NCBI GenBank assembly: GCA_030017475.1
Contig: JASEIO010000001.1
Span: 13,495-77,494 of the forward strand
Direction: 5' to 3'
Source of the DNA: a bacterium
GTDB lineage: Bacteria; UBA9089; JASEIO01
DNA length: 64,000 bases
Shown: one piece after another, positions 12,594 through 15,500 of the stretch
Position numbering within the stretch: the first letter of the stretch is position 1
Layout of the letters: every line of letters starts with the position of its first letter
Translations under genes and position numbers: made by a program
Notes under the pieces: model-generated
What the model saw: only the letters and a program-made list of their open reading frames with translations
What the model was told of the DNA's origin: nothing
The model's database searches: none

Positions 12594-15500
12594 ATGTTAC
12601 AGTCAATGTATAGCGGTATTACAGGGATTAAGACCACTCAGGGGTGGATGGATGTTATTGGTAATAATGTTGCTAATGTTCAATCGATTGGATTTAAGAA
12701 GGATAGGGTTACCTTTGAGGATCTGCTGTACCTGAAGATGAAAAATGCCTATGGACCAAGAGGAGGTCGGGGAGGTGAAAATCCAAAACAGGTTGGTACA
12801 GGTGTATCAAATGCAACCATTCAACATATCCATACATTTGGAGCAAAAGAGGAAACTGGTAAACCTACAGATATGTATATAAATGGAGAAGGTTATTTCA
12901 TCCTAAAGGAGGTAGAATGCCACTTAAAGCACTATACAAGGGCAGGTGCCTTTGATTTTGATGGTGAGGGAAACCTGGTTAACCCATCAAACGGATTCTT
13001 TGTTCAAGGTTGGATGGCAGAGTTAAAAGAGAATGGGCAGCTTTGTATTGATCCAAAGACCAGGGAGTCGATAATCGATATTGGGAAGCCTTTACAAAAT
13101 GTAAGACTTCCTAATAAGTTGTTACAACCTATGGCAACAAAAGGGATTGAGTTTTTGGACATATTGAATAAGGACCAAGAACTTCCAATAGACCCAATAA
13201 GGGTTAGGTTTACCTCTCCTGTTAAGTCAACCGAAGAGGTTGTAAAAAGAAACTATGGATTTGATAAAGAGGGTCGTCTTGTTTATGAGGATGAAGATGG
13301 GTTTTGGTGGTATCGAGATGGGGAGATTGCCACAAAGCCAGATGTTATAAGGAATGAATTGGATACAGCTAAACCTTGGGAAGAAGCAGGATTTGAGCGT
13401 GTTCCAACAGGGGAGGTAACGATAAATGGCGCGACCTTCCGTCTTTCAGATTATAGATTGGTGAATGATTTCATCGAGGCTGTAAATCAGTCAAGTAAGG
13501 CAAATGTAACACTATTCTATGATCAGATGTTGGATAAATGGATATTGAAGAATGATATCCTCGGTAGGGAATTACAGATAGAGGAGAATGTTCCTGAGGA
13601 AAGTGGAGTTGGATTTTTTACAGAGTGTAATATCCCCATAGGGACAATAAAGCCACAGGATATCTTGATTCAATTCAAGCATCTATTCGAGCCACAGAAT
13701 CCAGATAATCTATACTTTAGATTCACCCCTGTCAATCCAGATACCTATGATGAGATAACAACTGAGATTCAATCAACAGGAGAGGTGCAGTACGGTCATG
13801 AAATCTTGGATACAAGTAAAAGGATAGGGGATGCCTTTCTTGAGCACGTACCTGATGGGACGATTACCATAAATGATTATACATCCCGTCCCCTTTCAGA
13901 ATATGCATCCTTGGATGCATTGATGACAGAGATCAACAATTCCCCGGATGCTCGGGCAATACTCTCCTATGATCCGGTGAATGATAGATTTACTCTCCGT
14001 AATAAGATTTCAGGAGAGGATTTGAGGATTGCTGAGAAAACGGTCCCACCCCAAATTGGCGCAAGGGTTGAAGGTAGATTCATTGATGAAGTAAATGGAG
14101 AAGGAAAGGTTGATGGGAAGATTAGAGGACATGTTGATGGGAAGATCCAATATGGTTCAGTGATTGGAACAGTGAGGGGCAGGGTGATTGGGATTTCGGA
14201 AGGAGAGATAGAGGGACATGAAGTAGGGAGGGTAGATGGAGAGATTGAAGGTAAAGGTATGTTTTCTGGCTCAACCGTTGTATTCAATGGATTTGTTAAA
14301 GGGGATGTAACTTCTATAAATCTTGGTACACCCGAGGAGCAGGTTGCATATATCGATGGAAAGATCTCTGGTTCTTCGATTGGAATAATGAAAGGAGATT
14401 TTGGAATAATCCCAGAAGACACTGGAAGGGTTTCCCCTCTATATGCCTATACAAATGTATCCTCCTATGATTTTAAGTTGGATGGAGATATAAAAGGTTA
14501 TTTGGTTGCTGATGGAGAGGTTGAGGGATTAGTGCTTGGGAGTTCAGTTGGAGTAGTGGAAGGTCATGTTCAGGGAATGGCTGGTTCTGCAACTGTTGTT
14601 GCTTCGGATTTAGATGGAGATGGAGTCTTTGATGACCTTACCTGGAGGGTTGATAATGAGGCGACCATAACTGGGGATATAGTAGGGACTGCAGTTGGTA
14701 CAATCAATGGGATAATAACCGGAAAGATATGGGATGTAAATGGAAACTATGTTGGTCAGGTTTATGACCAGCGTGTTGATATGTCAGGAGTGGTATCTGG
14801 AAAGATAAGGAATGCCATAGTTATTGGATGTGCAGTTGGGAATATAGAAGGGAAGATCGTTGGAGAGGTTGGTTCAGCGATTACGCATGGTGGGACCTAT
14901 GCATTGATAGAGGGGAAGATCGTTGGAGAGATTGGAGGGATAAAATATGTTGATGTTACAGGTCATGTCTATGATGATGAGATAAATGACCATATATCAG
15001 CCATAGTCTCTGCAACAGGAGGACTTGTTGGGACAGCAGTTGGATATGTTGTAGGGACAGTTGAGGGAGAAGCCCATGGGAAGATAGAGGGTCTTATAAA
15101 ACATGGATATATATGTGCACAAGATATCGATGGGGCTGGGCAGGTTACAGGAAATATCCTATTTGACGGAAAGATAATAGGTTCTATTTCATCTGCCCTT
15201 GATACCTCAGATGATAAGGTATCAAATACGATTGAGTCGATTGCAGGTGGGGGGGCGCAAATAACGGGTACAATAAAGGGTAATGTCCGAGTTATTGACT
15301 CAAGCCATTCCATAACAGGTGTTGCGAAGGGAGAGATAGAGGCGGTTGAAGATGTTCCAACAGACTTAGGAGATCCATACAAAGATGCAGGGTATGCAAT
15401 TGAGGGTAGGATTGTTGGAGAGATCGATGGTTATGGAAGCATAAGGGGAGATTACAAGGGATATGCCACATGTATTGGGAGGGTTGATGGAAAGATAGAT

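Follow-up and report, generated by a model that had tools for sequence, protein, structure and literature searches.

Features of the locus

The window analysed here is a stretch of 64,000 nucleotides (nt) from the bacterial contig JASEIO010000001.1 (assembly GCA_030017475.1). It harbours a flagellar operon with a giant flgE gene, the product of which carries a large insertion containing two homologous modules. Profile comparisons support a relationship of both modules to the flagellin hook IN motif (Flagellin_IN, Pfam family PF07196). The gene and the relevant parts of the insertion are the following (positions in nt of the window; aa, amino acids; ORF, open reading frame):

12594..17060, plus strand: flgE, giant flagellar hook protein of 1,488 aa (assigned by its Pfam domains and an identical GenBank protein)
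13353..13610, plus strand: IN-type module 1 (type A, '...AGFERVPTGEVTINGATFRLSDY..FIEAVNQSSKANVTLFYDQMLDKWIL...'), core 13410-13586
13611..13799, plus strand: linker between the modules ('GVGFFTECNIPIG...FKHLFEPQNPDNLYFRFTP...')
13800..14063, plus strand: IN-type module 2 (type B, '...VPDGTITINDYTSRPLSEYASLDALMTEINNSPDARAILSYDPVNDRFTL...'), core 13857-14039
14064..15785, plus strand: Gly/Val/Ile-rich region of the insertion, distal to the modules, 574 aa (ORF aa 497-1070)
16233..16694, plus strand: bulk of the conserved FlgE domain D2, where the chain is back at the hook core after the insertion (Pfam FlgE_D2, 48.3 bits)

The translation from the ATG at 12594 (1,488 aa) is identical to the GenBank protein MDI6703080.1, which is titled 'MAG: flagellar hook-basal body complex protein [bacterium]' (MAG, metagenome-assembled genome) and is encoded on a contig of 101,333 bp. 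The mechanically derived ORF opens at TTG 12576, and the deposited protein begins at ATG 12594 ('MLQSMYSG'). All paralogues described below likewise start at the position of this ATG, and since they begin with 'MFQALYAG' or 'MLQAMYTG', ATG 12594 is supported as the start codon. Residue numbers in the ORF (from TTG 12576) and in the protein (from ATG 12594) differ by 6.

In a Pfam scan with numbering from ATG 12594, three domains of hook proteins scored over their cut-offs: the FlgE/F/G D1 domain at aa 96-157 (PF22692, 36.9 bits), FlgE_D2 at aa 1214-1367 (PF07559, 48.3 bits) and Flg_bbr_C at aa 1442-1486 (PF06429, 42.7 bits). The N-terminal Flg_bb_rod domain (PF00460, aa 5-35) was found at its expected place with a sub-threshold score (15.5 bits, cut-off 20.7). 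The insertion of approximately 1,040 aa branches off from the hook core directly behind the first strand of D2 and then returns to it. Since the strand 'QPMATKGIEFLDILNKDQ' ahead of the insertion resembles the start of D2, we infer that the insertion is placed inside D2, as are D3 and D4 in Campylobacter FlgE (PMC5097172). On the way out from the core, no folded element precedes the two modules, which thus lie at the proximal end of the insertion.

Most of the insertion is made up by the Gly-rich region, which is given here as context and is not part of the repeat. It contains 18.6% glycine, 12.7% valine and 11.7% isoleucine and follows the pattern 'G.(I/V).G.(I/V).G' with a glycine period of 4 (autocorrelation 0.44 at lag 4 and 0.23 at lag 8). 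The Pfam scan assigned it to no family; a match to FG-GAP was at chance level only.

Two homologous modules in FlgE

The preliminary description of this DNA had proposed two homologous segments in flgE, and this was borne out by BLASTP self-alignment. When two stretches of approximately 100 aa were compared, module 1 and module 2 shared 34 identities in 86 positions (40%; 58% positives, 2 gaps) with an E-value of 5e-17, which is far beyond chance. The earlier coordinates were right to within a few bases: the cores correspond to nt 13410-13586 and 13857-14039 (the second had been placed at approximately 13855-14048), or aa 279-337 and 428-488 of the ORF 12576-17060 on the plus strand. Only 13411 as the start of translation of the first core lies one base out of frame and had to be corrected to 13410. 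The homology opens approximately 19 aa ahead of the segments noted previously, with the common motif 'LDT(A/S)K...A....VP.G', and continues approximately 8 aa beyond them. Because the similarity extends on both sides of the cores, the repeat unit is approximately 86-88 aa long. The modules are spaced by 149 aa from start to start. The separation of about 90 aa that had been reported holds as the gap between the shorter cores; between the extended units it is approximately 63 aa.

A hidden Markov model (HMM) of both copies and a broader iterated HMM found exactly two copies in FlgE and no further copy in any other six-frame ORF of the window. At the central pair of the motif, copy 2 reads E-I-N-N-S and copy 1 A-V-N-Q-S, with a conservative Val; the Asn of this pair is nearly invariant across our alignments. 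The two copies are only 54% identical at the nucleotide level and 39.5% identical at third codon positions, and therefore the duplication is old and not a recent repeat.

We also considered whether the element 'GFFT..(I/M)P.G', which follows module 1 and recurs past the Gly-rich region (ORF aa 1075), could be the tail of a second unit that had been split. The recurrence had a z-score of 3.8, but its score was reached by 13 of 2,000 shuffles of the window protein and it was not reproduced in the paralogue P0004. This candidate was dropped.

Relationship to the Flagellin_IN family

The two segments had been read previously as a duplicated 'flagellin hook IN'-type module in the FlgE insertion, with a self-alignment and an hmmscan search against PF07196 proposed as tests. 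The former is highly significant, as described above (E 5e-17). In the latter neither copy matched, and PF07196 found nothing in the whole FlgE or in the isolated segments, even at E<=10; the window copies thus do not reach the gathering threshold of 22.7 bits. The same behaviour was seen with the ten closest relatives of this subtype, nine of which had no match to PF07196, and the tenth scored 16.5 bits. Support for the reading comes from profile-level evidence.

A profile was built from the two window copies alone and searched against 1.84 billion (1.84e9) representative proteins. It yielded 261 matches at E<=1e-3, 52 at E<=1e-10 and 17 at E<=1e-30, with two to nine matched stretches per protein. 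By their termini and Pfam content the proteins found are FliD, FlgE, FlgK and flagellins, and all those examined are flagellar axial proteins. The 48 full-length matches scanned with Pfam contained FliD_C (25), FlgE D1 (11), Flagellin_C (7), FlgK_D1 (3) and Flagellin_IN (14). In FliD, FlgK, flagellin and FlgE relatives the module is present in one to nine copies, odd numbers included.

Several of the matched stretches coincide with Flagellin_IN itself. In protein P0001, the stretch 444-525 covers the Pfam Flagellin_IN match at 471-513, and in P0028, another giant FlgE, the stretch 223-300 covers that at 241-290. The latter, which is the positional equivalent of window copy 1, scores 26.9 bits with PF07196 and is thus over the cut-off. 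PF07196 matches 46 of the 83 modules extracted from the window-seeded search, and local iteration on the matches converges to the canonical consensus '...GSFTINGVTI.V...DTLQDVIDAINASGAGVTASYDSATDKFTLTS'. For a direct comparison we used two sets: A5, the window-like subtype with 25 modules (nine of ten tested without a Pfam match), and A4, a canonical IN set with 26 members, 23 of which are PF07196-positive at E<=1e-3. The hhalign comparison of A5 with A4 gave a probability of 98.7% and an E-value of 4.1e-16 over 75 columns in the expected register. The subtype has the signature 'LDTS+..AGF...P.G.hTIN(G)..F.L..Y.oh..Fh.AhN.S..A.hThpYD...D+Fph'. Further, the modules lie between the matches to D1 and to D2 and hence in the variable middle part of an axial protein, as repeated IN motifs do.

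The profile of the 83 modules was also compared with the sequences of the PDB. It matched FliD of S. marcescens (5xlj, E 2.8e-5), the Sphingomonas flagellin p5 (2zbi, 3k8v and 3k8w, E approximately 2e-4), and FliD of P. aeruginosa (5fhy, E 2e-3) and E. coli (5h5v and 5h5w, E 0.03). At meaningful E-values only IN-bearing chains were found. The corresponding search with the two-sequence profile returned only noise from the PDB sequences.

Since PF07196 misses the window copies and nine of their ten closest subtype members, it could be argued that the resemblance is superficial, a matter of composition or of a short motif, and that the repeat is new to this lineage and has no relation to PF07196. 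The probability of this is negligible in our view. The alignment of 75 columns in register, the PF07196-positive stretches in P0001 and P0028 that are reached by a profile of the window copies only, and the PDB matches, which are all IN-bearing FliD or flagellin chains and with which the fold matches may agree, speak against it. Together with the 46 Pfam-positive modules, the hhalign result, the PDB matches and P0028 effectively refute it. Because of the coinciding stretches, the Pfam-positive modules and the hhalign probability, the sequence comparisons show both modules to be divergent members of the IN superfamily, out of reach of the curated HMM. The missing PF07196 match thus reflects a sensitivity limit of the Pfam model and does not show non-homology.

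Related modules were noticed in MAG loci of Verrucomicrobiota (L002-L016; for example L004 at 7940-9670, L007 at 9332-11290 and L003 at 9389-11338), which contain fliD genes with a second IN module. The stretch 'YDPVNDRF(S/L/T)LTN' of this second module differs little from the core of window module 2, in which 'YDPVNDRFTL(R/T)N' matches the Verrucomicrobiota FliD modules. In these FliDs, Pfam recognizes FliD_N and FliD_C only and no Flagellin_IN at E<=1, and therefore the blind spot of the Pfam model reaches ordinary-looking FliDs. A locus from Selenomonadaceae (L001) was discarded as a chance match: it encodes an unrelated enzyme, which has the peptide 'NPDTYDEI' in common with the linker.

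Word-indexed homology searches were of little help. With a region of 242 aa such a search found nothing, and with an alignment of five rows it found five FliDs only. In a clustering at 90% identity, the entry of FlgE (12594-17057) is represented by a fragment of 56 aa, with members of 40-55 aa. Such searches are weak here because FlgE is clustered with fragments and because its relatives share few exact words.

Paralogues and probable exchange of the module cassette

The pair of type A ('TINGATF.L.DY.TV.DFI.AVN') and type B ('TINDYTSRPL..Y.SL..L..EINNS') modules recurs in this order in five further FlgE-like proteins. According to accession numbering, MDI6703060 (1,536 aa) and MDI6703059 (802 aa, partial) are encoded on the same 101-kb contig, approximately five genes before the start of the window. 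Other contigs in the same MAG block encode the remaining three: MDI6703633 (1,479 aa) and the partial proteins MDI6703631 (962 aa) and MDI6704453 (654 aa).

Window copy 1 shares 55-57% identity with copy 1 of the paralogues P0004, P0006 and P0007; its identity with their copy 2, and with its own partner in the same alignment, is only 29-36%. Because each copy is closer to the paralogue copy at the same position than to its partner, the duplication predates the paralogues. Between paralogues the modules are 48-57% identical with almost no gaps, compared to 54-64% for D0/D1/D2 and 40-45% for the Gly-rich region; the linker is colinear with the linkers of the paralogues and 48-73% identical. The conservation of the modules is consistent with structural constraint.

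The cassette composed of module, linker and module is found outside FlgE as well. Its alignment with the flagellin P0003 covers 228 aa (33% identity, E 5e-28) and that with FliDs 221 aa (24%), and a type B module is present in an FlgK, P0013. In a different, unclassified MAG, window-type modules occur in both the FliD MEW5768159 and the flagellin MEW5768187. Because the same cassette of approximately 230 aa is found in hook, cap and filament proteins, outer-domain cassettes appear to move among axial proteins.

Genomic context of flgE

The genes neighbouring flgE belong to a flagellar operon. According to the Pfam content of the neighbours, the order is fliJ, SLT, MgtE_N/FlbB-like gene, fliK, flgD, flgE, flbD, motA, motB, fliL, fliM, fliY, and includes the following features:

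9903-10484, plus strand: lytic transglycosylase with an SLT domain, between fliJ and the flbB-like gene (PF01464, 109 bits)
11052-11753: fliK, upstream of flgE
11831-12262: flgD, upstream of flgE
17053-17277, plus strand: FlbD, small ORF overlapping the last bases of flgE (PF06289, 100.6 bits)

The order flgE-flbD-motA-motB is typical of flagellar operons in spirochaetes, Thermotogae and clostridia. Genes for FlgK, FlgL or FliD were not found within the window.

The MAG block that holds the window gene has accessions for at least five more giant FlgE-like proteins with the module pair, two of them encoded shortly before the window on the 101-kb contig, and this raises the question of whether the gene and its paralogues build another structure, for example a decorated or heteropolymeric hook, a FlgE-based filament or a sheath layer, which the modules would serve. 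We regard this as very unlikely. The window copy occupies the canonical slot flgD-flgE-flbD-motAB and keeps D0, D1, D2 and the C-terminal rod/hook domain, and the number of paralogues may partly reflect MAG binning or a mixture of strains, as P0006 and P0156 are more than 90% identical. It is tempting to speculate that five to six paralogous FlgEs of approximately 1,500 aa from one genome, each with an IN pair like that of the FliD head and a period-4 glycine repeat of approximately 570 aa, could co-assemble or alternate in an undescribed, very thick, decorated or heteropolymeric hook or a FlgE surface layer, with the modules as its conserved base, but this is a long shot. The window gene is the bona fide flgE of the operon, with an insertion of approximately 1,040 aa.

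Predicted structure and possible role of the modules

AlphaFold was run on a five-row alignment of the FlgE paralogues and gave a mean pLDDT (the per-residue confidence of the model) of 60.5, as compared to 35 in a single-sequence run. The domain of the first module reached 70-94 (85-94 in the core) and that of the second 66-87. In the model each module is predicted to be a beta-beta-alpha-beta-beta-beta unit. Fold matches also included H. pylori FlgE2, H. pylori FlaA and phage sheath proteins. In P. aeruginosa FliD, the profile match described above falls within the part of the chain that forms head domain 2. This contiguous domain (residues 104-230) resembles the outer domain of flagellin and adds to head-head contacts between subunits (PMC5072837). 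In Sphingomonas p5 the IN motif is located in the beta-domain (PMC9751261).

Axial proteins fold 'out and back', and because of this the insertion would have to project from the surface of the hook. We consider it probable that the modules are ancient tandem duplicates of a divergent IN subtype, which form the folded cores of two exposed outer domains and stiffen the hook. Each module would be the core of a separate domain resembling head domain 2 (D3) of FliD and the outer domains of flagellins, and both together would form the proximal (inner) layer of a large projection present on every hook subunit. As rigid, packing-competent domains they may carry the distal Gly-rich region, and they probably make extra contacts between adjacent subunits, thereby thickening and stiffening the hook in a manner similar to D3/D4 of Campylobacter. 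These domains, which in C. jejuni FlgE are inserted in D2, provide further contacts both inside a protofilament and from one protofilament to the next, and flagella are broken when the domains are deleted (PMC5097172). Surface exposure, the separation into two domains and the role in packing or stiffening are inferred here.

Several observations weigh against this proposal. The AlphaFold model was derived from five rows only and has a predicted TM-score (pTM) of 0.40; its linker is mostly of low confidence, its flanks are unreliable and the orientation of the modules to each other is undefined. A Foldseek search of the PDB with the model gave nothing significant (best E 0.4). PF07196 does not match either copy, and the same MAG has several FlgE paralogues, another of which might build the hook.

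Alternatively, the two modules could pair, within a subunit or between adjacent subunits, to form one pseudo-twofold domain, so that the duplication would represent an internalised dimer. The head lobes of FliD are built from domains of adjacent subunits (PMC5072837), the cassette of approximately 230 aa is kept as a unit between FlgE, the flagellin P0003 and FliDs, and the same alternative was raised for the tandem duplicated outer regions of giant flagellins (PMC6248924). We nevertheless find such pairing unlikely, since AlphaFold gives each module its own compact unit without confident packing between the two (at the low pTM given above), and the relatives with one to nine copies include odd numbers.

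The proposed packing role has also to be weighed against the possibility that the modules mainly serve to bind ligands or surfaces, as adhesive units exposed on the hook. In some species, outer domains of flagellin and FliD mediate adhesion. Flagellin_IN is the most frequent domain of the hypervariable regions of flagellins, which are often functionalised (PMC5595980, Table 1). The IN-bearing Sphingomonas flagellin p5 binds alginate, but its alginate cleft is near the N- and C-terminal part and thus outside the IN-bearing beta-domain (PMC9751261). Moreover, within the insertion the window modules occupy the proximal end, away from its tip; they showed no binding-site signature, and between paralogues they are conserved like the hook core, unlike typical adhesive tips, which evolve fast. 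A primarily adhesive function is therefore quite unlikely.

Significance of the modules

The modules extend the known Flagellin_IN family as a divergent branch and are not a new kind of element; Pfam already recognizes Flagellin_IN in one giant FlgE at least (P0028). Less ordinary are the size of FlgE, its period-4 glycine region and the count of giant FlgE paralogues with accessions from one MAG block. The understanding of how hooks work is unchanged by this finding.

It is of practical and of biological interest. The current Pfam model misses a sizeable divergent branch of the outer-domain module that is commonest in axial proteins. This branch was seen in FlgE, FliD, FlgK and flagellins of uncultured, poorly classified bacteria, and such proteins are therefore annotated by their conserved termini only. 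A profile rebuilt from alignment A5 would label them. Further, the presence of the cassette in hook, cap and filament proteins supports the exchange of outer domains among axial proteins, and the giant FlgE may be regarded as the hook counterpart of the route of duplication plus insertion that was proposed for giant flagellins.

Comparison with known systems

With PF07196 the window subtype has in common the register G-x-h-T-I-N-G ... D-o-h..hh..I-N.S.A.V-T-A.Y-D...D+h.L, the central (I/V)-N pair and the occurrence of repeats within the exposed central part of flagellar axial proteins. It differs in an extra conserved strand region 'LDTS+..AGF...P.G' at the N-terminus and in the start of the helix, which reads 'Y.TV..F' where PF07196 has 'D.D(S/T)L'. 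In addition, window copy 1 contains V-N where PF07196 has I-N.

Among structurally described proteins, head domain 2 (D3) of FliD from P. aeruginosa (5FHY), E. coli (5H5V/5H5W), S. marcescens (5XLJ) and H. pylori (6IWY) was compared. In contrast to FliD, the host of the window modules is a hook protein with FlgE D0/D1/D2 and without any match to FliD_N or FliD_C (PF02465 and PF07195) in the Pfam scan; only the central IN cassette is common to both, and its identity is only about 24%. The beta-domain of the Sphingomonas sp. A1 flagellin p5 (2ZBI, 3K8V, 3K8W) is a solved structure with one IN motif at residues 197-249 (PMC9751261), which is matched by the module profile at E 2e-4. However, p5 is a short flagellin with a single copy, and work on it concerned alginate binding and localisation at the cell surface.

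The window insertion showed no sequence relationship to D3-D4 of Campylobacter and Helicobacter FlgE (5JXL, 5NPY). The insertion is approximately three times larger than these domains and includes the Gly-rich region of 574 aa. The giant flagellins of Oceanospirillales have followed the same route, since an outer-domain unit was duplicated and a large, glycine-containing novel insert was acquired (PMC6248924). They differ in that they are flagellins and not FlgE, and in that their repeat is the DE region, which was not shown to be IN-related.

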